NCBI GenBank assembly: GCA_964430295.1
Contig: CAYSEV010000001.1
Location: 5,699 to 69,698, forward strand
Reading direction: 5' to 3'
DNA: 64,000 nt
Source of the DNA: an uncultured Gammaproteobacteria bacterium
Lineage (GTDB): Bacteria > Patescibacteriota > Microgenomatia > UBA10105 > UBA927
Shown here: positions 1,877 through 63,478 of the stretch, one piece after another
Layout of the letters: every line of letters starts with the position of its first letter
Numbering within the stretch: the stretch's first letter is position 1
Translations under genes and position numbers: made by a program
Notes under the pieces: model-generated
The model's database searches: none
What the model was told of the DNA's origin: nothing
The model's input: the letters and a program-made list of their open reading frames with translations, nothing else

Positions 1877-1927
1877 GTCGCGTCAAACGCGACTACCTTC
1901 TCAAACGCGAAAACCGCGTTTGACGCG
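1877..1927 (-). promoter_or_regulatory. Structured spacer between the two tRNA-Ala genes. A 13-bp inverted repeat (cgcgtcaaacgcg at 1879-1891 and cgcgtttgacgcg at 1915-1927) encloses two perfect hairpins: GTCGCG-tcaaa-CGCGAC (1877-1893) and CAAACGCG-aaaac-CGCGTTTG (1902-1922).
   Basis: The complementarity can be read directly. On the transcribed (minus) strand the hairpins lie between the two tRNAs, and a short U-run (CUUUUGG) follows the second. The element could be a processing or anti-termination structure, or a weak terminator. Confidence 0.4.
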
Positions 1928-1928
1928 G

Positions 1929-1999
1929 TGGACCCGAGGGGAATTGAACCCCTTTCTACTCCATGCCATGGAGTTATACTACCGGTGTACTACGGGCCC
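1929..1999 (-). tRNA. tRNA-Ala, anticodon GGC.
   Basis: Reverse complement: GGGCCCGTAGTACACCGGTAGTATAACTCCATGGCATGGAGTAGAAAGGGGTTCAATTCCCCTCGGGTCCA. It has the same acceptor stem as the other tRNA, with G3:U70, D-stem GTAC/GTAT, anticodon stem ACTCC/GGAGT with loop ATGGCAT (U33, anticodon GGC, A37), T-stem AGGGG/CCCCT with T-loop TTCAATT, and discriminator A. Confidence 0.8.
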
Positions 2000-29500: not shown

Positions 29501-32500
29501 GCCTTTATAGAGCAAATGAAAGCAAGTCCTGTCGAAGAGCAACCTGAAGTGTTAGGAAAAACCGTACCGGATATAACTGAAAAAGCAGCGGTGACATTAC
29601 CAAGTGTTCGTGAAGCCGTAAACGAAGCCATAGTTCAAACACTCATCAAGATAGGTGTTGCTTATATTGAATCAGGTGATCGATCCATTATAGAAACTGA
29701 GCTTAGAGGTCAGTTGCAAAAGCAAAAGGTAGATCTGACTCTTATAGCAAGGCCGGGACAAACAGCAGAAGCTGTGTTAGAAGAACTTGTTACCGCACTG
29801 GTAGAAGATTACGCTCCAGCTGTTAAAGAACATACAGCTGATCTTTCTGCAATAGAGCCTGCCAAAGCAATGAATAAGCTTGAAGTAGCCATTGATGAGG
29901 CTACAAACGCTATACTAGCTCGCGTTTCAGCGGAACAGCAAAAAACTCAAACACACACTATCGGTCCGGTAGAGATTGCCACCAATATCGGTCCGAAAAA
30001 GACGACAGGTTTGAGTGCAGATGCCTATGGAGTTCCAGAGCGATTTGTCAGTATAAAACCGGGATTTGCAACTATATCACAGGCACAAGAGGACGTTCAA
30101 ACAGTTTCACCTGAACGTATACAACAATATGGACGTGCCAATATAGTTACTCATGGTCTGGGACAAGCCGATTCCTACGCGAGCAGATATGTAGTCGGCA
30201 GATTCTATTCACTATTTTATGGAATAGGAGTAGCTGCTCTTCAACCTACGCTTGAGTCTACTGAGCGTGTCATGGCAATTCTTGCACAAATAGATGGTGA
30301 ATTGATTGAACAAAGCGCCAAACAGAATACCAAGCTCACAGCATCAGTGGCGGTAACGGTACAGAACGGGGGATTATTACAAAGTATTTGGGTGGGAAAT
30401 GTTCAATCTCATTTGGTGCGTGAAGGTCGGGTTATTCCACTCACATCCCCATCTTCATATGTACTTGGAGAAGGAAAAGCTCTGCAGCAGGGGGTCATTC
30501 AAACACACAATGATATGCCGACGTTAGCCCCTGAAACATTTGGTCCTGAGAGTGATATCGTGCTTGCAAATGGAGACAAGATAGTACTCTCTTCAGATGA
30601 AGTTATATCTCTATACGGTGGAGCTACTGCTGTTGTATCTGAAGGTCAGTATGCTGTGAGTGTCACAGATGCGAATCCTGCACAAACCACAGTAAATAGC
30701 GCCATTAAAACCGCATGGGAATCAAATAACAGTTCATACGATGCACTGACGACGGTTGTTGAGACAATCACAGTAAGTGGTAAGCGCGTGGCTACCAAAA
30801 AAGAAACCAAGCTTACAGAAGCCCGCAAACATGCTATTACATCCGGAGTAGCTCCATTAGCAGCATTCCAGGCAGAAACGCCAGAAGAATTAGCAGTATT
30901 AGAAACAAAGGCTTCACAAGCTCAAGTTCAAAGAGACGCCCAGCTGGAGGAAACATCGGATAAAGGAAAAGGGCGAAGATCCAGAGCAAAAGCCACTACG
31001 AAGAAACGCATGATTCAGGTACAAACACATGTGGGTGAAGTAGAGCTGCTATCAACTGAACCATTTAGTACGCAGGTTGTAGAAGTTGAAAAAGTGGTAA
31101 ACGATCTTGATCAGAGTATTGCCAGACTTGAATCATCGCCACTGTTAGATATCCCTCAGGAAGACCGTGCAGATGTCGCAACAACACTTATAGCGGCACA
31201 GAAGACTCGTGAAGATCTGACAGAACTGCATAAGAAGATACAGCGACTTATGGAGGCAAAAACGGCCATACAAAAACAATTTGGGCTTACATTGTTTGAG
31301 TGGCAAGAGCTGACGACAATTTCAAGCTTTGGGCAATTGCAGAAATTTGTTGCACAAGTTCAGCAGAGAATAGAGGAAGATGCCAGTATCAGAGAAGCTG
31401 CCGCAAACCGTGCAGCTAAGGAGGAAACACAGCAGGCACAAAAACAGGCGGACATCGATGCATTATCAAAAGAAGGGCAATTAACATTGGATAGTGAATT
31501 AAAGGCAAGACAACTGGAATCAAGAATCGCTATGTTAGAAGCCCTAGAATCTCTTAGAAGAGTGTATGAAATACAAGATTCACAGTACCTGCAGATGGAG
31601 AATGAACAGGCAGATGCCATCAACGCAGAAATAGATGCGGCATGGATTGCACACGAAGCCGAAGCAGCATTAGAGCAGTATTGGTCAGTCACGCTAGATA
31701 TACAGGAAGCATCCGCATTGCCGTCTGCGGAGAGAGTTCAAAAATACACAAATCTGCGTCCAAAGCTTGAAGAGGCAATTGATGTAATCCAATCCATGGA
31801 TCCACGAACATATCCTGAAGATGTGGCATACACACTTCGTGTCATAGCAACACGATCAGACGAACGATTAGCAGATATAGATGCAACGATTGCAGCGGAT
31901 ACACAGGCAAACGCACTCCGTGAAGCCCGCAGGGTTGCTATTGCTGCCGGACTGTTGACGGCAAAAGAAGCATTTGAAGCAAAAACTGTTGCAGAAGTTG
32001 AAACAAAGCAAAAAGCTGCACAAGAGCAAAGACAACAAAATCAGCAATTGGCACAGGAAAAAGCAACCGCAGAAGTCGCCACACGTAAAAAAGCGGCTAT
32101 TACGACAGCCGTAACCAAAATTCAAAAAGCCATCAATGTCCCACTTGTTGAACTTTCGACCCTCAATGTAGAAACAATTCTGACAGCACCGGAACTTGAG
32201 GCATTAGCCGCTATTTCAGCACAGGGAGATGAAACAGTAATAGCCGCTATCACTACACTATCTGAAACACAGGAGAGTGCGAGAACTGCAGTAGAGCAAG
32301 CAAAAGCAGCACTTGAAGTCATAGGACACGTCAATGAAGTCTTTACTCAACAATCCGCTACTTCTATAGATGGGCCTGATACAGGCGTGTTGAGTCTGGC
32401 AGATACAGTTGGACAGGTTATAGAAACCCGATTGCAGCAAACAGAAGATCTATCAAATCAAACGGACGCTATTGTTGAGGATTCATTGCCACCTGTTGCA

Positions 32501-38500: not shown

Positions 38501-41500
38501 ACATTCATTCAATCAATTAAAGGATCAGATTTTTCCTTCGTAAGACAACTGGAATCCGTCGTAAAGCGTCTGGTTAGTAAGATAACATGTGGTCAGGCAG
38601 GAAGGTTGATAGGTATTATCTATGCAACAGATGCATCCGCTGCCGCTTGTGAGCCATCTTTAGTTTCACAGACAGCTTCATTTGCCCCCTGGACAGTAAT
38701 TTCTCATGTCGTGAAGGTTGGGGCGGCGCTTATTGCAAAACCATTAACATCTCAAGGATTACGTCAGGCTTATAGGGCTATAATGCCTGTTTCTCCCGCA
38801 TTGTCTAAACCTGTGTATACAATTATCAATAAGGTAGAAGATGAAAAATATTATGTGTATGAGATTAAGCTACAGAATTCTTCACATACATTTAATGTTA
38901 GGATTTCTAAATTCCTTTCATTTGACCGAAATACAACACAGTCTACAGGGAATATATTTTTAGACTGGCATACGGCATATATTGAATCAGTTGTTGAGGG
39001 ATATGATCGTGCTCTGACTATAAATCCAAATATATTTGATACGCAGTATCCGCTGGATACAGTAGATTTTGACATACGCGCGATAAATGTGGATGTGTTA
39101 TACGAAAGCAATTTCTCCAATAGAATTTTTGATGGTATAGATGTGCCTGAAAATACAATAGTGCTTCCTGGTAGTGTCGTCCAGAAATTTGGGCAGGATC
39201 CGACTGTTGTGACGCGTACAATCACAGGAAAGTTGCTGTTAAATGCAGCATATTTCGGGTACTCTCACGATGAAGCTCTATGGCTGCGAATAATTTCTAA
39301 AGATCCATCCGCATTACAGGCATACCATGCACAGACGGATGCACAAGGTGTTACGACACATCTTGATGAATACCACAAAATTAAAGATGCACTTATACGT
39401 GCATTGCCATCACAACTAGTTGTTGAGGCAATGAAAATGAATGCAGATGAACTTATTCAGTTTTTCGCACAATTAAATGATGAAGAGTGGATGAATGTAT
39501 TGAAAACATACTTCGAACAAAGGGGGTTATCTCATGATGATCAGCAAAAGGCTGTTCTTTCATCCTTAGCTGCTAATGAAAAGTTCGTATATTATGCATC
39601 GTTCATTAAAGATGTGTTTAAGCATCAGTTCTCAGGAGATTTTATCGCGAGAGCAAGGTCCGAGGCGAATAGTCAACCTGCATTTCAGAGACGAATGCTG
39701 CGAATATTTAATTCGATACAGTTTGAAATGGATCAGACATATATCATTTCATTCTGGAAATATCCAAGGCGCATGTTTACTTTGTTGAGGGATATTTTCT
39801 ATTTTGAGCGCAATTTCATACCCGGTGACGAATTAGATACCCATGATGTTTCATCGTATGAACGCCTTATGAATTTACATTGGATCTCATTGGCACTGGA
39901 AACAAAGTCATTCACACCCGAATTGAGAAATTTAACTATTCAAATGTTCTTCAGTGTCATGCAGAAGGTTCTTGAGGGCAAACGAAATGCTGACAATGGT
40001 CCTATATCCGAGTATACGGATGAAACACACAGATATGTTGTGGAAACTAATATTGTAGCATTTGAAAAAATGTATGAATCTCTTTACCCAAGGGGCGTAT
40101 CCCGAAAAGAGTTAGATGCTTTGGCTAATGCTGTACGAAACATCGTTTTGAAAAAAGGAATATATAGTATTTTTGGAAGTTCCAGTGCATATGAAAGTAG
40201 AGCAGAAGAATGGTATTTACGATGGATCGACACTATTCCGGGTTTGCGGGGCAAATATAAGATAACAAAGTCAGAGGAAGTACTATTATCACGTGCGGTG
40301 CTTTTGATGCAGCATATTCCTGATTTCACAACATTGTCCGCACATGATCGCGAAGTTATTGGAGCGTCGCTGCTGAGGTATTTAGGAATTCCGGATGCGA
40401 GGGCAAAATATTTGTCTTCATTGTTTGTTCTAACGAGAAAAGACACATCAGTGGAGACCGTATTAAATGACTATGCTAACGCTCAGTATGATGGGCTTAT
40501 TAAGAAATATTCAGCAAGATACACTCCGCAGCAGATGCAAAAGAATATTGCATTAGCGAAGCAGGCTGCGGAAGCAAAAATAAAAAATAGGAATGCTAAA
40601 GTAGCGGATCTTTTGAATCTGCCGGACACGGATGAAAATAGAATTCAGGTATTTTTAGATGGCTATGATGTAAATCCTGAAAATGTGCTCTTTTATGACT
40701 CGGAAGTTTATGTTGATACATCGTATAAAAAACAATGGGAAGCTCTCTACCTTACAAGACTATTCTATATTCAGGATGAAGCCTACATGTCTGAAAAGTC
40801 AGGTATTCCAGCTGCTGATCTTCGGCGAGCCTCAGATGAAACACTTCGAATTTTCCGTTCAGAATATGAAGAAGTGTTTAAACGTGCGTATCCGAATGCA
40901 GAGATAATTCCTTCTGTTTTTGAGTCTGCGAACGCACTGTTTAAAACGATAAATATGATTGGTAATCCACTTGTTGTGATTCCTCCAACGAGTGTCATGG
41001 GTCCATCTACATTCGAGGAAATTTCAGTAAACGCGGGATCGGCAAATATTATCGGAAGATCTCATATGATAAATGCCGCTGTTTATTTTAGCTATGGAAA
41101 TTCTGTTTATCCGCTAATAGATTCCTCAGTGCATGAATTATGGCATTTAGCCCGCAGAGTAAACGATCGCGGTACTATGAATAGCATGTATCGGTATCTG
41201 CCGCAGTCTATGTGGCACCAGCTTGAGGAAGGAACTGTAACAAATCTGGAGAGGAAGGCAATGACTATTGCGTATCCGGGAGTTCCAATCATATCAATGG
41301 CAGATTATGCTATGGCTGAACAGTCATACCTGAGCATGCTTCAATCACTCCGACAGGTTCTTCCGACAATGAGTGATACAGAGTTTGATCGTCTAAAAGC
41401 AAAAATGGAGATTGGGGATTACTACGAAGTTGTTACGATGCTTGGCGGCTGGGATGCATTTAATACATTTTTGGAGGCAAATAAGATTGGTAATTTGCCA

Positions 41501-44500
41501 TATTTCGAATACACATTCGGCAGAAATAAATTGACTGATGCAACCGGTATGCAAACAGTTCAGATGGCGCAACGAACATCTTCAAATATTTCAGCATCTA
41601 ACGATACAAATCATTCTGACATGGCAGGAGTTCCAACTCTCACACAAACCGCTGAGTTTGTCGAAGTAAAACAAGCACTTCAGGGAGCACAGCGACAACT
41701 GGAAGGATATCAGGAAAACCTGATGGAAATGGAACGCTCGCTCAACTTTGTAAAGATTGGACGATTTATTGCCTCTGTAATCGGTATTGGAGGGGTACTA
41801 GTTCTTTTAACAGCTTCTGTAATACTAGCCACAACATATCTCATTCCGGGGATAATAATGGCAGCTGTCACTGCTGTCCCGGTGGCAATTTCATTACCGT
41901 TTATTATAGGAGCGTTTAACACATCTATTGTATATCCGCTGGAAGAAAATATAACCGATGTAAAGGTAGAAGTAATCGATCAGCAACAAGTCATCAAAAC
42001 ATTACAGGAAAATCCTCTATTCACAGAGCCTGCACTTCAGGATCTCAAAAAAGAAATGATACAACAGGAAACGGCTCATATGGAAGCGACACATGATGTA
42101 CTTATCGAAACACAAGACACACTTGACTTCTGGAAGCGGGTAAGAACTGTAATTATGGCTATTTTAGCTACAGGAGCGATCTTCGTTGGGGTCATATTAT
42201 TCTTCTTAACGGGGATGCCTGCCGCACTTGCTGCACTATTCATGACGCTGCCTGTCGTAACAATAATGGGTGGAATATTTATGGGTATGCAAATTATACC
42301 GATTGCACCGTTGGCAAATGATGTACGTGATTTACAGAAAACCTATGAATTACAGAAGAATTACATTCAAAAATTACAGGGAAAAACGTCTGAGACTGCC
42401 CCCAAATTAAAAGTCGCCAATGACCCATGTACAGGTGAAGGAGCGTTCCGACTCTTTGGTCGGGTGTTTGCGGCTGGGCCATGTCCGATTATCCCACTAG
42501 GCGCTACGGTTCCTGTTGTGACAACTGGTGGTAAAACAACAGATATAGCTCTCCCAGCTGGTAAATACGTGATTGCACAGACAGAGGAAGAAGCAGCGCA
42601 ATCAACAGCAGAGAAAGCAGAACCAATTATAGGAACCATACACGGCATGCAAACTGGGAATGAATTCATACGTATATTCCCGACTGTTCCATCAACCACA
42701 TATCCTGAACCCTTCATCATCAATTATGCTGGATATGTCAAAGCGCATCCGGTAGAAGAAAATATTCAAGCTACAAAAGAACAAGGAACGCAGATGTTGA
42801 AGTCTGGCCTATCTTATCCATCTTGGAGATTAGATAGCAAATCAGAGAAACGAGTAAAACTGGCAACAGACACACTTCCAAAGGGACAATACTGGTGGTG
42901 GAGGAAAATTGATCCAGTTACATTACAACCAATTGGCGACCGAATACTCATCAAAAACAATCAAGGAGAGATGCCAACCATAAAGCCTGGAGAGACGATA
43001 GCGGTAGGCACATTCAACGCAGACAAGTCTGGTAATCCAACCACATTTATGGCTGCTACCTATGTGTTTGATGGTGATGTGATCCTAGGGATAAAAACAG
43101 GATCCGACGCAATAGGGCCATCATCTACCACAACAAATAATTCACAATCAACACGACAATCTTCAAAACCAAGCACATTTCCAAAAATCTATGCATCGAT
43201 TATTGCATTTATATTTGATCCATTCGGCCGATTGGCCGAAATTCTATCAACGAATGGAAATATAGTGACAGCAGAAGAGTTACGACAATCCGTTTCTTTA
43301 CGGAAGTCAAATACTGATGCCGATGGTAATTTTACGCTTGACTATTTGATTTCGCTTGTTGGAGAAAGCCGTTCAGTACTGAGAAAACTGGTTCAATATA
43401 TGATGAATTTAGATTTTGCATATGAAGATATACGGGATATTGTAGAGGAAATTGTTTCCGGCCAATTTGGAAGTAGAACCGATAAACTTGTAAATTCAAG
43501 ACGCGTAAATATAGCAATCGTCAGCGCTATTATGTACGACAATTCCATATACGGTTCAAAAGTTCCCATGCCGTATACCATGAAAGAAGCGCTAAAAGCA
43601 GCCAATCTATATCTAGAACAGGGAGATGATTCTATTGTAACCAGACTGATTTCAGTAGGTATATTAGAAAACAGAGCACAGCAGATAAAACAAATGCTAG
43701 ATTCCGTTAATAGTGCAGGCTGGGATCAGCAAATATCGAGAATTGGTATAGTTCCAGTTCTCCTTACGCAAGCAGAATTAGTCGCGTATGACATCACAGA
43801 GCGTGCAGCAGGGCAGTTATATGAGGAAGCTCGGCGATGTTCCGGTCTATCGTTACTCCCGACTGTGTATGCTGATGCTGGTACAAATACTTCCTGTTCT
43901 GCTATGGGGAGAATTGTCTCTACAATGCCTCAAATAATCCCAATCATTGAAAGTAGCTGGGAAACATTACCTGGGAGATTTAGAAGAATCTGGTTGAACT
44001 TGTGGAATTTTCCAACTAGTTCTCTCACCATCAATACATCACCGGGAAACGATGATACGGTCTCGATAAGTCAAGAACAAATCTATGCGGCAACGCTGGA
44101 TTATATGGGTCAATTATTCGCACAGAACACCAATGGTAATACTGAAGAAATACTCTCACAAGTAACTACGTATGCAAGGAATCAAGGTTTGAATCAAATC
44201 CAGATTGATAAACTATCGTTAGCAATGGAAGTGATGGGGAAGAATCGTATCAGATCAGAAGAATTGCTTGCTCAATATAAAGATCCAAAAGATTTGTTTT
44301 ATGCAATGTTTGGATTACGACCATGGTTTCCTATTACAGCAGAGAGGGTTGGGGTAAATATTGCCTTTAGATTATATGATATAGATAATGCACGCTTGGT
44401 GGAAAAATTTATCCCACCGATAAAAGATAAAAATCCTCTAAAGAATTCAATTAATTATATATATTGGTTAATCAATAGGCCATTTAGATTCGCATATGGA

Positions 44501-54500: not shown

Positions 54501-57500
54501 GTAATGAACAAATGAATATATCAAAATATTTCTCCACAGAGCAATTATCTGATTTTGATTCGATTATTAATAAAATACTTGATAATTATAATAAAACTGG
54601 ATCATATGATATTAGGCATTCATCACAACAAAAAGATGTAATCAATATAAATGACGATCTTACTGCGGAAGAAAAATACGGAAGAATGTTTGATTGGACA
54701 AAATCTTTTTTTATTCTGAAAGCACTCCAGAAATATACAAAGCTATATCCTTTTTATCTTATTGGTCACTCTATTATAGTAGCAAATGCTGCGCTATTTT
54801 CTGGGACTGACTTTGGTACATTTTTATATCAAAAGGCATTGCCATGGATGTATGCCACTGTCAGTTCTGATATCAAGCACACAGCAATTTTGATGATGAT
54901 TTCTTATATAAATAATTTATCAATAGCAGGAGAAATCGCTGACATGTCAGTATCTGAGTTATCTGAATTTAATAGAGAAGTTGTTAATACGTTCATTAAG
55001 GCATTTGATAGGAATTTTCAATTAGCATATTCAAACGCAAGTACAGGGTTAGACTCTGATGAGTTAAGATCCGATGCTGAGAAGAAAATACTACAGGCAA
55101 TAACTATAAATTCATATTTTCCAATATTGCCTCTCCCCAGATTCTTAACAGGGATGATAAATCAAAACGGCTTTATGGGACATGGCACAGGAGTAGCGTT
55201 TTTATCAAAAGCGTTAATAGTTGAAAATAGAAAACAAGCTATAAGTACATCAGTTCATGAAATGAATCATATGCAAGTCGATACGCAAATAAATACACCG
55301 GAATTAAATTATTATTCGCACCTTCCATATGGTTTATCAATGACCTTAGATGAATCGATTACACGACTGAATCAACTGGAATCAATTGATGCATACAACG
55401 AAAGTTATTATGATATTGGTGTAATTAAGCTACTTACTGTGTTAAAGCCGTTTTTAGTAGAAAAAGTTGGGCAGAATACTGCTGACCAAGTATTTGCACA
55501 GATTAAGTTAGGTGATTTTTCGACCATTGTTAGTATCTTTGGGGGATGGGACGCTTTTAGAGCGTACTTACAGGACCCAACAATGTTTGGATCGTATTAT
55601 AAAATTGATGAAATTCAATATAGAGATAATTCATCTGATGTATGGAAAAAAGTTAATTTCGAAAACGATCGGGAAATATTTTTATCTCAATCTGCCGAAT
55701 TATTACTCCCGAACGGTATTGTTGTACCAATGCAAAAGTCAATAATATCAGGAGTGAAAAAGAAGACCAATAAACAAATAGTAGACTCAAAATCTCGTAT
55801 TTTATACACATATGATAATGCAGATATTGCCGAAGAAATTGAACTTAAAGATGATAAATATATCCTTTTAAAGGAATATGTAAGTATAGGAATAAATATT
55901 ACTGACTTCTCTTCAAGACTTATTGTCGGTGCGAGGAAAAGCAAAGAAATACTCGCAATGCAATCAGAATATGCAGATCTATTACATTCATTATTTGTTG
56001 AACCTGACGATGTCGTGTCATCCATACATGCTAATGTCAATCCAATAGCAAAAACTATATATATGAGATCAGCGCACATAGATGCAACATGCATCCTTGG
56101 TCAGCGCCTCATTCCCCAGGTTTTTGCAGAATCAATTGGAACGGTTCAGACCAGTTACTGTGAATTCGCAGGCCGTGAGGGCTTGTTATATTCCCCAAAT
56201 GCCGTTCTTCGGGCGATGATAGGCAATGCGAATGGTCAGGTGACGCGTTTGACTGCCATTGCCAAAAGTTTGGCAGTAAATGCGGATAATCCTGAATTAT
56301 CTCCGACGGAACGGCGTATGTGGCATTTTCTGGGGCAAATCATCGGTGGTGATCTGTTTACGTATATGGAAAAACTTCAACAGACCACCGCAAAAAAAAT
56401 ACGCATATCTGATGCTCAAATGGAAGATTTATATGCGACATACATTGCCCTCTACCCCCATGTACGGGAAGCTATTGCCCGGAAAAACGAACAGGGTACA
56501 GTGACGGCCACATATGATCCTGAAGTCGTATACGCTGTATTGAAAAACACACCGGTAGAAATCCGTGAACTTGCGGTGCGCGCCGTTTCCTTTATGATGC
56601 AAACAGCACAACATGATGATGCAGGGAACATCATGTCCATGCCTATGGATATCGATTCTGTAGAGGGAAGGCGACATCTACATGATGCATTGGCCTATTA
56701 TAACGATCAATTCTTTGCATGGTTGAGTCTGGCCTCTCCTGACGGGTATCAACAGTATCAGGAACGGTTATCCGGCAGAGCTCCTAATGCTCTCCGTCGT
56801 GATGTGTCCGATGTGAGCTCACTTGAACTTATATTCCCAACCATACAAACGTCTGCATCCAGCGCATTTCCATTCTCCACACAGGTTGTAGGAAGTACTC
56901 CATCAAAAGAAACTATGAAGAGCCTCTATACCGTTGTAAATGGGGATACTGTTACAGCTTCCACTGAGACCATGAGTGTGATCCTTCGCGATCCGCAGGG
57001 GAGAACGGATCAATCAGAACGAATGTCAATCATGGCAGAGGAAATAGGCAAATATTTCCAAAAACATGAACTGATGCCGGAACATCTTATGGACGTATGG
57101 CCACAGGATGCGCTCAGATTTTTCCTTCGTGAACAACTGCAACTGATGGGAATAAAGAAAGAAACAGTTGAACTCACATTCGTGTTCAGAATAAAAGATG
57201 TAAATGGACAATGGATTGGTGTAGCGCTCACAAATACGGATGAACCGCTTGTGATAAACAAAGAGGGAAGTAAGGCTGTCCGCGCATCCGATCCTGCAGA
57301 ACTTGGCACAGTTGCGCTGGCACAGGTGGTGGACAAATTCAAAAGTGAATGGAATGTTTATTTCTATCCAATTCCTAAAACGGGGAATCAATACGTGATG
57401 ACTAGAAAGAATATAAAAAGTATTCAGAATGAGCTATTAAGCACAATGGCATTAGATGTTCCTGTCTCTGCATATGGAGAAAAACTGACAGAAATATTGC

Positions 57501-60500
57501 AAAGGGACACAAAGCAAACTCCTTTTGTTATAACGTCACTAACTTGGACTTCGGATAAGACCGAGTATAAAAAAACTGACTCAGATTTCAAGATTAAAAC
57601 AATAGGAAAACCAAATGATGCAAAGAAATCAGACATTGTATTGCCTGAAATCGGTCCTATAGGAGAGGGTCATGCAAGCACTCGATACTCTACATCTATG
57701 CGAACGCTTGAAATAAAACCGGAAGAAAAAGCATTTGCTATATGGATAAAGAAAAAAGGTGAACGGCTAGCTATCAAATATACCGCGCCAAATGCATACA
57801 GATCTTTAGCAACAGGTGATGAAGTGACGTTTTCATACGCATCCGCAGAGAGTGCATCAGAAGGTGTTACCTATGTTGTTGCTAAACTCGCTGACGGCAA
57901 TTTTGCATTTGTTTTGAGCTCTAATCACGAAGTGCTATACGGATTACCATTTATAGCACCGGAAAATGAACCTGTCTTTGTTCAGCAAAAAGCGAATCGT
58001 GTGCAGGGGAATACCGGCTGTGGAACGGCATATGATTCGTTTCTCACAGTCTTTGCCGAGGAACCTGCAGAGCCTGTCGTTTGTTATCCTGTCAGAGCAG
58101 GTTCGCTACTTCAGTTAACTAACGGTAAAAATATCCGCATCCCAAAATGGGGGATATATGTGCAAAATGGCTTGCATATCTTTAGTCCTAAGACAGTCAT
58201 GCAAGTGCCTAAAAACGGTTCGATAACAATTATAGGATTATGGGTATGGAGAACGATACAGGGAACAGAGATAACAAATACAACTCGTTCCATAACCGTA
58301 CTTCCCACATCATCTGGTGACATATCTTTACGTGCTTCTGCTTCACCTGGTGATTTTGTGAATAGTACTGCACATGAAGAACATACACGTCGCTATTACA
58401 AACAGGCAGTTATGGAACATGCTGCCCCTGATATTTCATTGGCTGCAGCGAAATCAATATTTTCAAGACTTTATAGAACGAATGCTCCAAATCGTGATGA
58501 AGCAAACAGATTATATATACAGGCATGGATTATTATGCATACACTTGTTGCAAATGGTCATCTTCGTGCAGAGCAAATTCCTACACTATATGCAGTTCGG
58601 GTAAAGGGAGAACTGCGCTATGTATTTTCCTTCGCGCAAACATTTATTACGCATAACCATACAATAACAAATGCGGATGGATTAACAGTACATACAGGAT
58701 CAGCGCCTGCAGAAACGATTTTGACATATATGCAACAAGCGGATCCGACGCTTTCTCAGTCAGATATATCTGAAGTAGTGTGGAATGCCTCTTCATACCC
58801 ATTTATGCCTATTGGTACTGAAATTGAGTCAGAATTATTAGAAAAAGATATTACTGTTGATACTCATGCTATTGCTCAGCTTGTTACTCCGGAAAAAATT
58901 ACTCTACTGCGGCAATTTCCGAATGGTTCAGGGACCGGTTTTGGTGTCAGTCAGATAGTCGCATCCGATCAGTTTGCTCTTTTAACCGCTGGTGTAAATG
59001 CAGAAGAGGTCGAGAGAATGTCCGGTATGATTCGTCAAATCATTACTGAAACTCTTGATTTGATGAGTGGTGATCCACCAATTGTAAAAATCAGAAATAA
59101 GATAGATGCGATTCGTTCAGAAAATTTTGATGAATTAATAAGAAATAACAGTGCATTACAACAGTCAGTATTGGAAAAGTCCAACTCACTCTTTGGTAAA
59201 GGCGTCCAGTATGTGAAAATTTGGCTTAATGCCTTCGGTCTCTATGTGGATTATGATACTGCCTTCAAGGCAATTCGTGAAAAGGTAAATACAGATGTAG
59301 TAGCCTTTGCAAGCTACATGAGTTTATATGAATCGGACAGATCCACATTCTCAGAACTGGATCAATTTGACGCTACTCGATATTTCCTTGATATGTTACA
59401 GGAAAGATACAACGTACAGCTGGCGCACTACAAAGGGGGGCTGTTTTTCAGACCTCTTGCATCTGGACATAAAAAAGATCCCGGAGGTCCACTAGATTAC
59501 GTTATCGATGCTGCTTTTGCGCAAAGTGCAAACCAGAATATTACATTCCTTAATCCGATTATCAAACAGTGGAAAGAACGCCATGTGTACGTTCTACAGC
59601 CATGGTATCTGAATTACCTACAGCCTGACATGAAGTATACGTCGTATACAGACCTTGGTATCACAGAAGAAGATATTCCGCTGGTAAACCTCTCAAGCCG
59701 CCCACAGGAAGATCAGCATATGTTGGCTAATCTCACAGGATTATTTCAGAAATATCTGAGAGCACCACTGGTAACGGATACGTTTACAGATCATGTCTCA
59801 CAGAGAAGACCATGGCTTTCAGCATTGAGATCAAGGATTACTCAGGAAAGAACCCAAAGTGATGCCACTGATTTTATCCGATGGATATCTACAAATAAGC
59901 TTTCCGGTGGGGAGATATCTCAAATGACAAGTCATGTCCTTACACTTCAGGCATTGGGAATATTTTCATTTTCTTCCGAACTTCTTGAGCAAGCAAACAC
60001 GTTACAATCATATTTCCTTAACAATAGTGAACGGTATGATTCACTTACAAATGAGGAAAAACTTACTGTTGTGCAGGATGCAATTTCATTTGCTAAGAAT
60101 GGTCTTAAAGAATTAGCATCCGCATCAGTTCTTGAATCTACTAATTTACCAAAAGAAGAACCTTCTGAAGTGCACTCAAAAGAATTAAAACAGGAAGAAA
60201 AAAAAGTATCAACCGAGAATTCCGGATGTGATATAACCATTTCCTTATTTCATCAAGTGTTTGCTCAGGAGCCTGCAGTACTTGTTAATTGTTATCCCAT
60301 TGGAGCAGGTTCGCTACTTCAGTTAACTAATGGGGACACCATACGTATACCAACGTGGGGAATATACGTTCAGAACCGCAAATTACATTTTTTTGGTCCT
60401 GATACGATACTGGAGGTTTCTCAGAATGGCAATATCACAATACTTGGACCGTGGTTGTTTCGCACAATACACGGAGGAGACATTTCACTTGAGGGAAAAC

Positions 60501-63478
60501 ACACTCAAACTCAGGATATTCGTGTAGTGGAAGAAGATCCTGTTACTGTTTCGCCAACAGTTGTCAGCGATGCCATGAAGGAGCGCATAAAATTATTGTT
60601 AGGAAATAAAGTATATGAAGCTGTGGCCGGGGTTATTTCTCAAAATAGAGAAGGAGCAAAAAAAGAACAGGATTTGCTTGACGCATTGGCTCAGTATATG
60701 GTTGACGCCAATTACAATTCACAGCTTGAAAAAATATCGCTCGATAAGTTTGTTGCTGATGTTCGAGGAATACTTGGTGAACACGCAGATGAATTTATAC
60801 AACAACTTGAAACTGTACGAGATCCGATTCACGAGGTATTTTCACCATCATCTCTTTTGCCATTTATCCATGAAGGATGGAGTGTTGATGCCAGGTTTGA
60901 TATTTCAAATTCTTCAAATATAAATCAGGCGTATACAAGCAACGTATTGGGTGATTATGCGTTCCGGTTTGGAATACGTGCCGTGTTGGACGTGATTGAT
61001 AGATACCCAGAATTACGGGGAAATGCAGTTATTGTACATTCATCAGGAGATGAACATCTTATTTTAACCAGAAATGGCTATAATTTACCGTTATCATTTA
61101 AGTCTGAAGTCGAACGCATATCAAAAGAGAAAAAAATCATTCGGAAAGGTTTTGATGGTTTACTGCATTATGAAGACTTAGGAGTTCACTTTTCTGATGT
61201 AAAATTTCCTATAGAAAAAACGATACCATCAGATGGAAATGTTGATATAACGCCAAAATATCTCAATGATACAAAAACGTCAAAAAGACTATTTAATTAC
61301 CATCCTGAAATGGCATTTATAGTGGATCGTATAAGCCAAATTCAGGTTAAATCTTCTTCTCAGAAAATAGATATAGCGGCAGGACAACGAGTAATGAGTT
61401 ATCTGCAATGGCTCTTTGAGCGAATTTATGTCGATGACATTATGGAACAGGGGTTTAATCAGTATGAAGCTGATAGAATATCCAAACCACATTATGACAG
61501 AGAACACATCTTTATTTATAAAGATTTTCGTGATTTTGTTGGAGGTATAAAACAGCGTGGTACAAAATTCAAACTCCTAAAGTTGGATTTCATTGGGAAT
61601 GCAAAACGTATAAATGATGAAATCAGTTATGAAGAGGGAAATAGGTTTATTCAGCAACAATTGGCTAAGACACTTGATATGTTGCATGCCCAAGGGATAC
61701 AAAACGTACGTATTTTTAGACGAGCAAGTGAATTTTATATTGCCCTTGAAGATGGTGAATATGCAAAAGAATTTGTAGATATATCGGATGAAAGTGTTCG
61801 AAAAGCATTGAATGGCACATTTACTACACTGGATGGAAGAAGCTTTTACGTACCGGTGTCCTATGCATTTACAGATTTGAAGCTGGTAAAAGATACAATC
61901 GCCGATGAAATATTACCGGACGGAACCCGTATAAATAGAAATATTAAAAATATGGGTGACGCATATGATCGTCTACGTGAACTGAGCAAGGCAAATGCAT
62001 ATAGATATTTGCAGAAAGTACTTCAGACAGAATCGATGACCGAACCAATGTGGGATTTCGTTATGTACTATTTTAACCCGAATGATAAACGGGGAATTAT
62101 GCGAATATCGGATCTGGCTATATCACCTGATGATCTTATACATCTGCAAACTTTTTATGCAGATCAGACGAGATATCAGAAACAGATACGCAGTATACTT
62201 ACCACGGTTATAAGAAACTACATACCAAAACAGACCCGGATAATTTCTGAAAAACACAGTACGATATCGCTTAAAAAATGTCTTGTAGATGCTGGCGTTC
62301 AACATGTCGTATATGCGCAGGATGCAGGTGGGGGAGGTGGTTGGACATGCCCGCCGTTTTTACAGGCACCTTGGAAAACGATTAAGACATATACAGAGCA
62401 ATTTAACATGCCAGATTTTTCTATACAAAAAATACTTGGAGCAGGAATGGGACTGCTAAAGAAAGCAGGCAAATGGACCATTGGACTCTTTCCATTTAGT
62501 TGTAGAACAATTGTATACATGATGCTACATGATATTGATCAGGGAGTCATTCATACTGAATATGCAAAAGACGCGTTCCCGACAATCTTTAAAGGTGAGG
62601 CTGCATGTACAGAATTAATGAAAAATTTAATAAGCGATAGTCAATTAATTATCATAGGAGATACGAGTGTGACAAGGGTTGTCGATGGAGAGGTTATACG
62701 ATTTTATCTCAATAATTCCACTACAGCTAAAAATTTAGGATTAGAACAAGACAGCGAAAAAAAACCCGCTTTTATAATTGAGCCAATAGCAAATGGAATA
62801 ATAGTTCCTTTGACAGATCTAGCGACAGTACAAGCAGCGTATGCAAGTTTAGGAAAGACATTGCAAGATCCGGTATCTGTCGTCTATTTAGGAACAGTCG
62901 GAGATGGTTCAACATATAAATATAACGGTACTTTTGTATTAAAAACCGGATTCGATCAGAACAACATATGGGTAATGTCTAATGGTCAACAAATAACTGC
63001 AGCCACTAGTATAAATCCAAAAGATTTATATCCAACTGCAGTGCAGATTCAAACATTATATGACTATCGGGACATATATGATCTATCTTATGCAACGAGG
63101 AATAATGAACTAAGGTTATTGTCACAACTATCGCAACAATTCAACGATTATATTTATAATAATTCAAATTCTTTTGCATTCCAAGGATACATAAATATGG
63201 TCGGCTTTGATAAAACTGGAAAGCCTGTACATATTTTTGTTGATAGGTCCGTATTTTATAATCTCGAATTACAACAAGAGTTTAGAGAGAATTTAGAAAA
63301 AGAAGGAATTCAACATCAGGTAGCGATTTCAGATGTTGTAGAGAGTACTATGATATCTACAAACACTGGAAACTCGATAGATGAGTCAACACAAAAACCG
63401 GTGGCAGACCATACGTGGAATGGTATCATTAACAATGAAAAATTAAACGAGGATACACCATTTGTTATTATTCGGTAA
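45542..63478 (+). CDS. Giant multi-domain membrane protein 2, 5,978 aa from the ATG at 45542 (the ORF is open from TTG 45494). It contains N-terminal TM helices, TM pairs, repeated Cys-bracketed modules, two HExxH domains, a class-3 lipase domain and long internal repeats.
   Basis: The frame is uninterrupted for about 18 kb. The first ATG, at 45542, is preceded by GAGG (45530-45533) at 8-nt spacing, whereas the TTG at 45494 has no RBS. The N-terminus MVGMLQYLFAFVSHIFTLF...MSGMVVGFILSFSIIYGIS is hydrophobic. The protein's architecture is paralogous to the C-terminal 1,200 aa of gene 1. Confidence 0.88.
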   Translation: MVGMLQYLFAFVSHIFTLFTKRFSHGLQSKKHHSIVFGGMSGMVVGFILSFSIIYGISQDCRSAIHQLVSFKLIPVVHAAQNCPVLPPAEVAAAKANAVKKESQLRGFAKVLNQPYAITFFQYLNQLLGGSSKTANTADKTASTPLENTSSLNNISEDKVLNGQAAKEHILALARKYKGVLSTQLLSHIETAIGVGMLPKEYMSFNDGEKIQFLAGGQSSALFTPAVLQKLADYALVDPRIAIGQFSEMAAATYAEQLPQESDIRLAIVKLKEMGVNQYSLKLQLFSDGQPLWIVNTSGQSFVIRAKKTTIPIEEVRSRIASLGDTIPFTYAEQLAPGKVLLFIRNLSYDNDGEYVKLPEQASFVEKVLERFRDLGFEPDFVHESYMNLQNFMYSKFYGKMFYVDQDVFDELLKSDGIKPNDKVTRAVNSQLEELSKRSSVKTPDTAPSSVTPNPSSALNTAKQQAVVSRLKLALDGANNALVNSQRNFWFAAVGTIVFAIGMIAIMATVPWLIVPAALALLVTVPSSMFLIPNFYMSMDTNRQTLQSAQAQYISAQNDLLILERSQASATPLNISSEQAKARAQETLDAATKANNVAFNNLVFGSAATIAIVFLAVAVMMISPGLFVLPSAIALVGVVLLSSFGLFRLSSNFNTSLSTLRGTQQVVKTGVSQVISKDNPCKPTGFHLFGQVYAEGPCIILSVGGDPVATAKEGEKGEPIPSTPAQILPGSTYVVGTFDELKNVTEGKDSVGTQIKEIPSDQYVKVFPPVGATGPNNQPIQPFVVDVPTIYATQQANQPIQQQNSGAKVNMSDSSPNTTTTIRNTINRILDIRSWFPSPYSIIQNNIVLRMFAPFISPVTTSISPWSIFGRGRSEPIQEIANIVSSEEAQQYVISKYNAMISALESGAKLSSTRTTMMRAEAIAGLIASPAENIDAANRRYAMAFILMNTLVDRELAHPRQVERFFMVRTSKGIRLIYTDGKNFVTNTNPKSSTERVAVKYLTGGIKEALAYMQEYDSTVQLSDFEEVNWDASLFPFMDRTNIAPDSAKIRSKRGVEIAEDIVKKLENPPIPTAIEFAKDKLMELQPEKASSVDRALKDIAVDMNAVDGDQAVKQNAIYRKFFGDPIWQNYGLAKGYFELHVAAPKKYPLELKANSDELTDESLKAIHEWYESQQTPDEAHQERLNRGGALNMVQKIKTLLAKLGIKLPLAETDPIHNSVVVFSDDQFKLLYPDKEDANILAFYDERLGLYVIRSSANLTSNQKTELEEIKFMIAAHEAGHDMVRYIGPFMTHEWNEGMATMFMIALLVKQNGISWTEARAKVVAFVSPEYVKHLEMVEQSQFGSVLIERAFEKGFTSETVADVFLTFYKKLPNKEKMLAGATYADSTNAFTTAVTSTAQQFGIITPDQKVELWPKLYTFFVDNTVAKDLDPDTEVKFDPTTRSIGKKRVTLPILSSIPSSELFGTIAGLDRKGYALPKADFDSLDIEAPGYVLAVQNDSEAKEYLERLYRTYPGAATKPIFILVATSRRTAVSGNVLLTSNGSDLLRALDTIFQSSGPLHELRTQAKKTEVTEIRPGVYQFGSALFFVDKTTGAMAMDYAPDTSLASVQIDGRSLAQTAYVFNNTQIGISGVAYTVTTQGNAVILIKENGESVQLPIAAKSLREFPKNPGQSPLPAPVLPATQKQAAQPVVSVKQPEAVLKNPVSTSDEANVLTMKTKDGVIKVRRAELVDGKLIGHGAIIYDDPAKQIEYGATEMPIRIMFNTTDENLSGLTQETLMRELERRYVYANDVLIAWHGYLETGEQFEPAGNTVLEPWDKNGKRQMMIALSHSGTEGTYVENPDYTAKNLIAQVEAAVELVSEQINYTDEDVHITLMGHSLGGAIAFKLAEKHGLDTTGVWAKVKYIMLTPYVGDPNQLTLLNEYSLIPGVKSLGILRIINSWYLPSALRRGLLAFAHFVGFDEALFSAMMSLDLKKMDDASVRLSKDIALKNLSDAPVAIRMTQSLLNIGMVENNAPLQDLTRKSRMVVFYPGVDDTLDSAITRSFNLSRGFFQVGYDRTHNPSTASYKSHIFEVVQGLFEGFDIQKTRPGVFAQIDRRSHNFYKVVWDGLKMKFSKLSSTDPCTPTISVQIFGRVYAAGENCVIFYSNSEVETRTENGQSTGIKRNIPQSGTFRVVTQEQLTDEVLNPQTTDFKFNGKISFTNSLDGQTQNRYLVVFPSDNTPAFIIRIPDIHTQSGTQSGKVVSIDTHTNVRLDGKTWKLSYSAADTSAKLNGISLGQGDISLEKGSRNTLYVAPNYVLLIDIDPNSNELTYQKLPSDDPRVVFESLEIESLPESISPQVRERRDAAYKGDLARSILNNVDEAQDARMIEFRDGSRAFPKTPPHPAYSGETSSWKYHSEYAQKELWNSYYTSLVAALASGKSKEDIKGEVNKLLAQFRNTANLELFKEKQAFSDGLVRQLEAQPAEEFLPLTLGSAFREILNRYPLLKTIITPDQLAALKRVLIEEVKNAYMLFAASGSNAILEARGYFFPNPVKSVTTNENGSLVIDTLKKDEANTIIEIRNKDGTYKKNPVILAAYIKAIEEGAQYISFTLASKTDEGFNEILPDLAEYVYEHNRNPKYKSSPVVLMVDAVQLFGRAPESEVFQWLLVEGISGVIHTGSKAAAGPAHAGITHISTYGKTVTGTVSTVDQSIANMTTPAIVRAIGNLKAIRGMWDLGPAFQLYSPIAVALQRVYDRFFTRIGLVPIGDEEGFQRKNTFGSIRTYRLMMGWDGKTIVDAKKLLATWSPVWLMGGVLEETPLAGPLLRNGIPIGVMKWLKETVITPEDLKDPHMSAEKAANAVDDALRQVEGRMQDDLIRLAEENGVYLRIADEIAPVDQTEAAAQAALIALVNTAAKRTGVQDEGESCDPTQVGIHILPRVYAAGCKTGMTRKLYNQLITGAKLLGTRMNRIVWGRLFGKKNVFGQFKQNQVQNITSRSRLFVYSNEQMNISKYFSTEQLSDFDSIINKILDNYNKTGSYDIRHSSQQKDVININDDLTAEEKYGRMFDWTKSFFILKALQKYTKLYPFYLIGHSIIVANAALFSGTDFGTFLYQKALPWMYATVSSDIKHTAILMMISYINNLSIAGEIADMSVSELSEFNREVVNTFIKAFDRNFQLAYSNASTGLDSDELRSDAEKKILQAITINSYFPILPLPRFLTGMINQNGFMGHGTGVAFLSKALIVENRKQAISTSVHEMNHMQVDTQINTPELNYYSHLPYGLSMTLDESITRLNQLESIDAYNESYYDIGVIKLLTVLKPFLVEKVGQNTADQVFAQIKLGDFSTIVSIFGGWDAFRAYLQDPTMFGSYYKIDEIQYRDNSSDVWKKVNFENDREIFLSQSAELLLPNGIVVPMQKSIISGVKKKTNKQIVDSKSRILYTYDNADIAEEIELKDDKYILLKEYVSIGINITDFSSRLIVGARKSKEILAMQSEYADLLHSLFVEPDDVVSSIHANVNPIAKTIYMRSAHIDATCILGQRLIPQVFAESIGTVQTSYCEFAGREGLLYSPNAVLRAMIGNANGQVTRLTAIAKSLAVNADNPELSPTERRMWHFLGQIIGGDLFTYMEKLQQTTAKKIRISDAQMEDLYATYIALYPHVREAIARKNEQGTVTATYDPEVVYAVLKNTPVEIRELAVRAVSFMMQTAQHDDAGNIMSMPMDIDSVEGRRHLHDALAYYNDQFFAWLSLASPDGYQQYQERLSGRAPNALRRDVSDVSSLELIFPTIQTSASSAFPFSTQVVGSTPSKETMKSLYTVVNGDTVTASTETMSVILRDPQGRTDQSERMSIMAEEIGKYFQKHELMPEHLMDVWPQDALRFFLREQLQLMGIKKETVELTFVFRIKDVNGQWIGVALTNTDEPLVINKEGSKAVRASDPAELGTVALAQVVDKFKSEWNVYFYPIPKTGNQYVMTRKNIKSIQNELLSTMALDVPVSAYGEKLTEILQRDTKQTPFVITSLTWTSDKTEYKKTDSDFKIKTIGKPNDAKKSDIVLPEIGPIGEGHASTRYSTSMRTLEIKPEEKAFAIWIKKKGERLAIKYTAPNAYRSLATGDEVTFSYASAESASEGVTYVVAKLADGNFAFVLSSNHEVLYGLPFIAPENEPVFVQQKANRVQGNTGCGTAYDSFLTVFAEEPAEPVVCYPVRAGSLLQLTNGKNIRIPKWGIYVQNGLHIFSPKTVMQVPKNGSITIIGLWVWRTIQGTEITNTTRSITVLPTSSGDISLRASASPGDFVNSTAHEEHTRRYYKQAVMEHAAPDISLAAAKSIFSRLYRTNAPNRDEANRLYIQAWIIMHTLVANGHLRAEQIPTLYAVRVKGELRYVFSFAQTFITHNHTITNADGLTVHTGSAPAETILTYMQQADPTLSQSDISEVVWNASSYPFMPIGTEIESELLEKDITVDTHAIAQLVTPEKITLLRQFPNGSGTGFGVSQIVASDQFALLTAGVNAEEVERMSGMIRQIITETLDLMSGDPPIVKIRNKIDAIRSENFDELIRNNSALQQSVLEKSNSLFGKGVQYVKIWLNAFGLYVDYDTAFKAIREKVNTDVVAFASYMSLYESDRSTFSELDQFDATRYFLDMLQERYNVQLAHYKGGLFFRPLASGHKKDPGGPLDYVIDAAFAQSANQNITFLNPIIKQWKERHVYVLQPWYLNYLQPDMKYTSYTDLGITEEDIPLVNLSSRPQEDQHMLANLTGLFQKYLRAPLVTDTFTDHVSQRRPWLSALRSRITQERTQSDATDFIRWISTNKLSGGEISQMTSHVLTLQALGIFSFSSELLEQANTLQSYFLNNSERYDSLTNEEKLTVVQDAISFAKNGLKELASASVLESTNLPKEEPSEVHSKELKQEEKKVSTENSGCDITISLFHQVFAQEPAVLVNCYPIGAGSLLQLTNGDTIRIPTWGIYVQNRKLHFFGPDTILEVSQNGNITILGPWLFRTIHGGDISLEGKHTQTQDIRVVEEDPVTVSPTVVSDAMKERIKLLLGNKVYEAVAGVISQNREGAKKEQDLLDALAQYMVDANYNSQLEKISLDKFVADVRGILGEHADEFIQQLETVRDPIHEVFSPSSLLPFIHEGWSVDARFDISNSSNINQAYTSNVLGDYAFRFGIRAVLDVIDRYPELRGNAVIVHSSGDEHLILTRNGYNLPLSFKSEVERISKEKKIIRKGFDGLLHYEDLGVHFSDVKFPIEKTIPSDGNVDITPKYLNDTKTSKRLFNYHPEMAFIVDRISQIQVKSSSQKIDIAAGQRVMSYLQWLFERIYVDDIMEQGFNQYEADRISKPHYDREHIFIYKDFRDFVGGIKQRGTKFKLLKLDFIGNAKRINDEISYEEGNRFIQQQLAKTLDMLHAQGIQNVRIFRRASEFYIALEDGEYAKEFVDISDESVRKALNGTFTTLDGRSFYVPVSYAFTDLKLVKDTIADEILPDGTRINRNIKNMGDAYDRLRELSKANAYRYLQKVLQTESMTEPMWDFVMYYFNPNDKRGIMRISDLAISPDDLIHLQTFYADQTRYQKQIRSILTTVIRNYIPKQTRIISEKHSTISLKKCLVDAGVQHVVYAQDAGGGGGWTCPPFLQAPWKTIKTYTEQFNMPDFSIQKILGAGMGLLKKAGKWTIGLFPFSCRTIVYMMLHDIDQGVIHTEYAKDAFPTIFKGEAACTELMKNLISDSQLIIIGDTSVTRVVDGEVIRFYLNNSTTAKNLGLEQDSEKKPAFIIEPIANGIIVPLTDLATVQAAYASLGKTLQDPVSVVYLGTVGDGSTYKYNGTFVLKTGFDQNNIWVMSNGQQITAATSINPKDLYPTAVQIQTLYDYRDIYDLSYATRNNELRLLSQLSQQFNDYIYNNSNSFAFQGYINMVGFDKTGKPVHIFVDRSVFYNLELQQEFRENLEKEGIQHQVAISDVVESTMISTNTGNSIDESTQKPVADHTWNGIINNEKLNEDTPFVIIR
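49300..49700 (+). other. HExxH domain type B in gene 2 (HEAGH at 49370-49384).
   Basis: The context is ...EEIKFMIAAHEAGHDMVRYIGPFMTHEWNEGMATMFMIALL..., with a downstream Glu-containing segment that could supply the third zinc ligand. Confidence 0.35.
50890..51330 (+). other. Class-3 (fungal-type) lipase / alpha-beta hydrolase domain with a GHSLGG nucleophile elbow.
   Basis: The sequence ...RQMMIALSHSGTEGTYVENPDY...DEDVHITLMGHSLGGAIAFKLAEKHG...KYIMLTPYVGDPNQ carries GHSLGG at 51170-51187. Together with the downstream P-x-V-G-D/N motif, this reproduces the Lipase_3 signature (hh-GHSLGGA-hA, then G-x-P-R-V-G-N). Confidence 0.6.
55160..55620 (+). other. HExxH domain type A in gene 2 (TSVHEMNH...GGWDAF), the paralogue of 41050..41520.
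   Basis: HEMNH lies at 55256-55270. Its context is ...KQAISTSVHEMNHMQVDTQINTPELNYY...; about 85 aa downstream is ...DFSTIVSIFGGWDAFRAYLQDP. Confidence 0.45.
58011..58335 (+). repeat. Internal repeat R1 of gene 2, about 105 aa and beginning with the Cys-bracketed module. It is repeated at 60218..60500.
   Basis: R1 NTGCGTAYDSFLTVFAEEPAEPVVCYPVRAGSLLQLTNGKNIRIPKWGIYVQNGLHIFSPKTVMQVPKNGSITIIGLWVWRTIQGTEIT aligns with R2 NSGCDITISLFHQVFAQEPAVLVNCYPIGAGSLLQLTNGDTIRIPTWGIYVQNRKLHFFGPDTILEVSQNGNITILGPWLFRTIHGGDIS. The two copies share an identical 26-nt DNA core, gcaggttcgctacttcagttaactaa. Confidence 0.8.
60218..60500 (+). repeat. Internal repeat R2 of gene 2.
   Basis: See R1. Confidence 0.8.

Follow-up and report, generated by a model that had tools for sequence, protein, structure and literature searches.

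Two adjacent giant genes share a paralogous domain

The stretch of DNA analysed here (64,000 nt of contig CAYSEV010000001.1, positions 5,699 to 69,698, hereafter the window) is nearly filled by two open reading frames (ORFs) of the same strand, named g1 and g2. Each of the two giant proteins that they encode carries one copy of a domain of about 200 amino acids (aa), recognisable by an SVHExxH motif and, further downstream, by a GGWDAF block. We call it the SVHE domain, and it is the subject of this report. The genes, the two copies and their motifs are located as follows, in positions of the window:

2582-45307, plus strand: g1, giant gene, a single ORF of 14,241 codons, carrying domain copy 1
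40949-41536, plus strand: SVHE domain copy 1, g1 aa 12790-12985 (BLAST core aa 12829-12965, nt 41066-41476)
41132-41146, plus strand: HELWH of copy 1, with g1 H12851, E12852 and H12855, invariant in the pair alignment and proposed as two zinc ligands and a catalytic base
41228-41230, plus strand: g1 E12883, invariant Glu at HExxH+28, context LEEGTV, candidate third zinc ligand
41444-41461, plus strand: GGWDAF of copy 1, g1 aa 12955, with D12958 as alternative ligand candidate
45494-63478, plus strand: g2, giant gene, an ORF of 5,994 codons, carrying domain copy 2
55046-55633, plus strand: SVHE domain copy 2, g2 aa 3185-3380 (BLAST core aa 3221-3360, nt 55154-55573)
55256-55270, plus strand: HEMNH of copy 2, with g2 H3255, E3256 and H3259, invariant in the pair alignment
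55352-55354, plus strand: g2 E3287, invariant Glu at HExxH+28 of the pair alignment, context LDESIT
55541-55558, plus strand: GGWDAF of copy 2, g2 aa 3350, with D3353

The possibility that g1 and g2, which have a common reading frame, form a single gene interrupted by just one stop codon was rejected. Four in-frame stops and an AT-rich spacer of 186 nt separate them, and they are therefore two genes. The database version of g2 (P0001) begins at nt 45542 and is identical to g2 residues 17-5994. As read directly from its sequence, the N-terminus of g1 has a transmembrane (TM) anchor.

The two SVHE regions are true paralogues. In a full-length BLASTP comparison, g1 residues 12829-12965 align with g2 residues 3221-3360 over 149 columns with 24% identity (E 1.8e-6). 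The Smith-Waterman score of the two copies is 108, compared to 30.8 +/- 5.0 in 2000 shuffles (z 15.6, Gumbel p 8e-10), and GGWDAF is expected only 1.5e-4 times by composition. Blocks invariant in the pair alignment are S-V-H-E-x-x-H, Y-x-x-L-P, L-x-E, A-Y, G-D and G-G-W-D-A-F, and in both copies an invariant Glu sits 28 residues after the second His, in the context L-[ED]-E-[GS]. All this conservation is that of two sequences only.

A preliminary description of this DNA had reported both motifs in the two giant proteins, with a single copy of the domain in each. The motifs are indeed there, in frame and invariant, and a profile built from the pair and run on g1 and g2 finds exactly one copy apiece. 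The pairwise alignment that it had suggested as a check gave the significant paralogy reported above. The distance from HExxH to GGWDAF, given as 85-95 aa, has to be corrected to 104 aa in g1 and 95 aa in g2. The positions proposed for the g1 copy (41050-41520) do fall on the domain, one base out of frame.

Four HExxH motifs in the two giant proteins

Taken together, g1 and g2 (20,235 aa) contain four HExxH motifs where 0.185 are expected, an approximately 20-fold over-representation (p 4e-5), and these motifs are therefore not random. Conservation of HExxH among homologues, a feature of zincins, is observed for the SVHE domain, in which HELWH and HEMNH occupy aligned invariant positions. The two remaining motifs belong to separate modules:

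49370-49450, plus strand: HExxH module of g2, HEAGH-x15-EGMA, aa 1293-1319, with a canonical ExxA signature of gluzincin type
44612-44700, plus strand: HExxH module near the C-terminus of g1, HELQH-x17-EIIS, aa 14011-14039, with a thermolysin-like ExxS signature

Gluzincins combine HExxH with a Glu placed on a downstream helix, typically in the form ExxA/S/G (PMC6414381), and the small residue at Glu+3 is present in both of these modules (EGMA, EIIS). The g2 aa-1293 module matches PHROG 87 ‘metallo-protease’ weakly (E 0.003) and has no Pfam, NCBIfam or Protein Data Bank (PDB) match. For the g1 aa-14011 module, no match was found in any database searched.

The SVHE domain resembles these two modules by its location in the same proteins and by its layout, HExxH plus a downstream Glu. 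It differs from them in sequence (17-23% identity), by a connector between the two helices that is 10-12 residues longer, and by the GGWDAF region. When all four modules are aligned with MAFFT, HExxH is invariant. With soft gap penalties, the g1 copy aligns with the g2 aa-1293 module HExxH on HExxH, then, after a single gap of 12 residues, SMYRYLPQSMWHQLEEGTVT against DMVRYIGPFMTHEWNEGMAT. Identity in this alignment is 38-40% (E 0.045, p 0.04 uncorrected), and g1 E12883 falls on the Glu of WNEGMA. The g2 copy aligns weakly with the g1 aa-14011 module, including an upstream strand-like ‘RF..G..N’ segment (p 0.015, also uncorrected). The profile of the pair alignment does not detect the two other modules. 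A profile of all four, run against PDB, brings only proabylysin (4JIU) to E<10, with a non-significant E value of 0.38.

Genomic setting and lineage

The surroundings of g1 and g2 are as follows:

Upstream flank of g1: rho, 3' end
574-1659, upstream of g1: LysM-M23 peptidase gene
1789-1860 and 1927-1999, minus strand: pair of adjacent tRNA-Ala genes (anticodons CGC and GGC), situated between M23 and g1
Downstream of g2, minus strand: 3' end of a PgfM/YfhO-like membrane glycosyltransferase gene

The M23 protein has 179 relatives in genome contigs, the best being 85% identical. Many of the titled records among these are of Candidatus Gottesmanbacteria (Microgenomates, Candidate Phyla Radiation (CPR)/Patescibacteria), and the window is therefore placed in this lineage. 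We retained 80 of the 179 M23-related loci (L001-L080), and the retrieved stretches extend no further than the first ~3,000 codons into the syntenic giant genes. Directly downstream of M23, at least 26 of the 80 loci have an ORF that runs for 2,500-3,100 codons without reaching a stop, and several of the syntenic giant ORFs have N-terminal parts 30-70% identical to that of g1. A giant gene at the position after M23 is a conserved trait of the lineage, with fast sequence divergence. The pair g1 and g2 occupies 60.7 kb, and the genomes of relatives are of ~1-1.2 Mb. The two genes are almost wholly without annotation in domain searches, and our literature search brought up no paper on giant genes of Gottesmanbacteria.

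Search for further members of the family

The SVHE domain is an orphan, known only as the paralogues of g1 and g2, with no visible family beyond them. An exhaustive HMMER profile search of 1.84 billion (1.84e9) representative proteins matched one protein, P0001, which is g2 itself. Word-index searches of 5.8e9 protein clusters, with each copy and with g1 aa 12300-13500, gave no match, and neither did scans of genome, metagenome and viral contigs with patterns from the domain alignment, nor a search against phages. A tblastn match on a Massilia plasmid (E 0.5) was discarded, the hypothetical protein concerned having neither HExxH nor a Pfam domain. The proposal that SVHE-x-x-H...GGWDAF might define a family thus finds no support from the 1.84e9 representatives or the metagenome pattern scans, none of which holds a further homologue.

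The reach of the profile search can be judged from two observations, the second of them a control. On the one hand, g1 was not returned by it although it had to match, so that very long products may be missing from the library; this weakens arguments from absence where giant proteins are concerned. On the other hand, the M23 proteins of five of six checked relatives are present in the 1.84e9 collection, and that of the sixth genome is there with a different start (P0003), from which it follows that the proteomes of relatives were covered. The domain was not found in the 80 related loci, which reach the first ~3,000 codons of the giant genes, and its absence from the relatives' full giant genes rests solely on the 1.84e9-protein search together with the five-of-six M23 control.

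Other modules and repeats

The two proteins share more than the SVHE domain. Directly after copy 1 lies a module in which two TM hairpins, with coiled-coil spacers, precede a beta-rich segment ‘DPC...FG[RQ]V[YF]A.GPC’ (‘DPC...FGRVFAAGPC’ in g1). This module has two counterparts in g2. A loop bracketed by Cys, of the pattern C-x(5-9)-h-h-x-[QRTV]-V-[YF]-A-x(1-12)-C, is found nine times in g1 and g2 when 0.003 are expected by shuffling. These elements, and the recognisable enzyme or signalling modules, are the following:

41525-42724, plus strand: TM-hairpin/DPC module of g1, aa 12982-13381, directly after copy 1, paralogous to g2 by BLASTP
46805-47899 and 51755-52201, plus strand: g2 counterparts of this module, aa 438-802 and 2088-2236 (E 1e-9 and 2e-4)
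42428-42484 and 43838-43897: two Cys-bracketed loops in the last 1,000 residues of g1
47582-47635, 51911-51970, 54269-54325, 56090-56161, 58019-58084, 60227-60292 and 62279-62350: seven Cys-bracketed loops of g2
15527-15718: FHA domain, g1 aa 4316-4379 (E 1e-11)
27812-28750 and 29930-30778: two internal repeats of g1, aa 8411-8723 and 9117-9399, 28% identical, PP2C-like
51020-51403: lipase-like alpha/beta-hydrolase module with a GHSLG nucleophile elbow, g2 aa ~1843-1970 (LIDHydrolase 27.1 bits, cutoff 27)

The TM/DPC module has no Pfam match and no relatives in metagenome contigs. Modules are shuffled between g1 and g2, in differing order, and are not isolated. According to the preliminary description, the SVHE domain was conserved between the two proteins and its surroundings were not. 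The first half of that statement stands; the second does not hold entirely, the module that directly follows the g1 copy being paralogous to g2 as well. The Cys-bracketed loops contain 14 of the 18 cysteines of g2, which they split into segments of 600-1,400 residues. No such loop occurs in g1 aa 1-13280 or in those parts of the relatives' giant ORFs that were accessible. With the SVHE domain, the TM/DPC module and the loops in common, the C-terminal ~1,450 residues of g1 are therefore g2-like. To see in the loops disulfide staples, or sites at which the embedded HExxH modules would cut, is purely speculative.

In the first of the PP2C-like repeats, matches to PP2C_2, PP2C and SpoIIE are sub-threshold (E 1e-4; PP2C_2 22.3 bits, cutoff 24). 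The FHA and PP2C-like modules may form a phospho-signalling pair inside the giant protein. The lipase-like module of g2 has many weaker alpha/beta-hydrolase matches, including the phospholipase effector Tle3 of type VI secretion systems (T6SS). Several TM hairpins are scattered in g1 and g2.

Repeats were also seen elsewhere. In the Pro/Thr-rich N-terminal region of g1, a Cys-rich unit is tandemly duplicated with 88% identity (aa 341-399 and 504-562; 3602-3778 and 4091-4267), which suggests a recent repeat expansion. Two internal repeats of g2, both without Pfam match, are 51% identical (aa 4156-4261 and 4886-4998; 57959-58276 and 60149-60487) and 33% identical (aa 942-1054 and 4326-4438; 48317-48655 and 58469-58807).

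A putative gluzincin-like module

The preliminary description had viewed the SVHE domain as a functional zinc-binding catalytic module. Motif invariance, the Glu at +28 and the HExxH enrichment speak for this view; the searches for a family or structure match do not. A zincin reading is plausible but unproven, its support being at the motif level. Two classes of zincins find no counterpart here. The metzincin signature HExxHxxGxxH/D, which in that class goes with a Met-turn, is absent, HELWHLARRVND and HEMNHMQVDTQ having neither Gly at +3 nor His/Asp at +6 after the second His. The signature of aspzincins such as M35 (GTxDxxYG some 10 residues after HExxH, providing an Asp ligand) is absent near HExxH, the sole G-x-x-D block being GGWDAF, 95-104 residues downstream.

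Our best explanation, to which we give moderate confidence and no more, is that the domain would be a highly divergent, lineage-restricted zinc metallopeptidase module of gluzincin-like type, embedded in giant multi-enzyme proteins. We favour gluzincins because the arrangement HExxH-x27-[ED]-E-[GS] has the +28 spacing and the L-x-E-G context of that type, and because both His, the Glu of the motif, the Glu at +28 and GGWDAF are all invariant at 24% identity. According to the sequence and to a low-confidence model, the +28 Glu lies in a helix-prone segment. The other enzyme modules of g1 and g2 (FHA, PP2C-like, lipase-like alpha/beta hydrolase) would fit a multi-effector protein. The weak alignments of the two copies with the other HExxH modules, the proabylysin match of the four-module profile and a weak Pfam match of the g1 copy to DUF5700 also point, without significance for the last two, towards a gluzincin-like peptidase.

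Several observations weigh against this explanation. The small A/S/G residue usually found three positions after the ligand Glu in gluzincins, at the Ser/Gly-turn, is replaced by V in g1 (EGTV) and by T in g2 (ESIT). Searches of PDB, Pfam, NCBIfam and PHROGs gave no significant match of the domain to any peptidase family or structure, the best library matches being DUF5700 (E 0.17) and proabylysin (E 0.38), both non-significant. DUF5700 is annotated in Pfam as a ‘putative zinc dependent peptidase’, and its match covers residues 32-134 of the g1 copy and 110-213 of the profile, thus spanning HExxH and the Glu segment (11.7 bits, cutoff 25). We treat it as a lead only, and it was not reproduced with the g2 copy or with the consensus sequence. 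Library matches to YjjG, ClpS, LeuD, COX3, flagellin and P450 were treated as noise. Two AlphaFold2 models, computed on two-sequence alignments, have a pLDDT of 40 and 45 and are both unusable. In zincins, HExxH belongs to an active-site helix of the N-terminal subdomain, beside a mixed beta-sheet and its backing helix. In model 1, HExxH is in helix 61-73 after a hairpin 46-55, and in model 2 it is in a helix with no strands predicted (local pLDDT 30-36 in both), so that the models disagree on the secondary structure upstream of HExxH. With either model, Foldseek returned only noise from PDB (E>3), an uninformative result. Finally, the p values of the inter-module alignments, 0.01-0.04, are given before correction for five comparisons.

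Alternatively, the domain would be no enzyme at all, and instead a lineage-specific helical module with a structural or interaction role, in which HExxH and GGWDAF would be kept for folding, for non-catalytic metal binding, or because the domain is a pseudo-peptidase. The lack of significant homology to any catalytic family agrees with this, as do the predicted secondary structure of the models, mostly helical and without confident beta-sheet, and a conservation supported by two sequences. Yet the two His, the Glu and the downstream Glu would then have to survive 76% divergence without catalytic selection, in proteins where HExxH is over-represented and where the two other HExxH modules have full gluzincin signatures. 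We hold this alternative to be rather unlikely.

A different question is whether the third ligand has been correctly chosen. FtsH (M41) relies on an Asp located well beyond its HExxH, and the SVHE domain could similarly be a zincin-type metallohydrolase in which the Asp of GGWDAF (g1 D12958, g2 D3353), ~100 residues after HExxH, binds the metal, the +28 Glu being structural only and catalysis unchanged in all other respects. GGWDAF is the strongest conserved block, with 6/6 residues identical in a domain of 24% overall identity, and the +28 Glu is without the usual small residue at +3. Against this stand the missing aspzincin signature and the position of the +28 Glu, which falls on the Glu of ExxA when aligned with the g2 aa-1293 module, and we find such a ligand improbable.

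Some zincin-like folds are not classical endopeptidases. That the SVHE domain should be one of them, acting at the host cell envelope on a peptidoglycan stem peptide, a lipid-linked substrate or a nucleotide, would suit its combination with lipase-like and PP2C-like modules and the life on other cells that is expected of a CPR bacterium (PMC8080830), but no specific evidence points there and the motif pattern is that of peptidases, so that we regard it as very improbable.

Paralogy, motif invariance, orphan status and genomic setting are shown by the data. Returning to the gluzincin-like reading, we infer from the motifs the following scheme for fold, metal binding, catalysis and substrate. 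A duplication would have placed the domain in both of the adjacent giant proteins of a Candidatus Gottesmanbacteria bacterium. On its active-site helix, the two His of SVHExxH (g1 H12851 and H12855) would bind Zn2+, and the Glu of the motif (g1 E12852) would activate the zinc-bound water as general base. On the following ‘glutamate helix’, the +28 Glu, likewise invariant (g1 E12883, g2 E3287), would be the third ligand. The helical C-terminal part, which ends in GGWDAF, would close the lower half (wall) of the cleft, and may supply a polarising or stabilising residue, or residues of the specificity pocket. The likely substrate would be a protein, either a surface protein of the host or prey, or the giant proteins themselves, which would be processed into separate modules.

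A more far-reaching version is that the domain founds a new family of MEROPS rank in clan MA, restricted to giant proteins in a single lineage of Gottesmanbacteria, and that it cuts these polyprotein-like giants, in cis or in trans, into effector modules, perhaps at the nine Cys-bracketed loops with their recurrent ‘h-F-G-x-V-Y/F-A’. If true, this self-cutting would be a metal-dependent counterpart of toxin autoprocessing; we consider it a long shot.

Should the SVHE domain be an active zincin, it would represent a new peptidase family without detectable relatives, an extremely divergent form of a known kind of enzyme. Its host proteins take up ~60 kb together, roughly 5-6% of a CPR genome of ~1 Mb, and such an activity would help to explain the role of these nearly unannotated giants, be it the attack or remodelling of a host surface or self-processing. 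Practical value is limited for now, and two sequences restrict evolutionary and structural inference. The larger question, and a more interesting one than a single module, is the purpose of the syntenic giant genes of Gottesmanbacteria.

Comparison with known systems

Among known enzymes, the gluzincins (MEROPS clan MA(E); thermolysin M4, aminopeptidase N M1, collagenase M9) have a conserved Glu placed a few tens of residues beyond HExxH, and the SVHE domain is alike in this, with a spacing of x27-28. The x-E-G-x-A/T motifs of M1-like enzymes also resemble its L-[ED]-E-[GS]. Unlike in gluzincins, Glu+3 is V/T here, and no significant sequence or profile similarity links the domain to any MA(E) family. 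We know of no counterpart of the GGWDAF block in gluzincins.

Proabylysin (4JIU), a mini-Glu-zincin of MEROPS family M95 (PMC3890501), is comparable by its small scaffold (~100-200 residues), and the alignment runs from an F-x-Y-G strand through HELxHL into the next helix. This similarity is not significant and is largely motif-driven (E 0.38, pairwise p 0.01-0.04). Moreover, proabylysin is free-standing, whereas the SVHE domain has a helical C-terminal extension of ~100 residues with GGWDAF, and is embedded in giant proteins.

As to the host proteins, giant proteins are also a topic of work on episymbiotic CPR bacteria (PMC8080830) and on Omnitrophota (bioRxiv 10.1101/2023.11.21.568195). The giant genes of Omnitrophota and the large surface proteins of Vampirococcus are, like g1 and g2, very long and sparsely annotated, with scattered enzymatic modules including peptidases, in small-genome bacteria dependent on other cells (bioRxiv 10.1101/2023.11.21.568195; PMC8080830). 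The likeness is one of description, the phylum being different, and g1 (14,241 aa) and g2 (5,994 aa) exceed the sizes of up to 4,163 aa reported for Vampirococcus. By analogy, g1 and g2, as arrays of enzymatic and membrane modules, are consistent with the surface or effector giant proteins of episymbiotic CPR bacteria and Omnitrophota.

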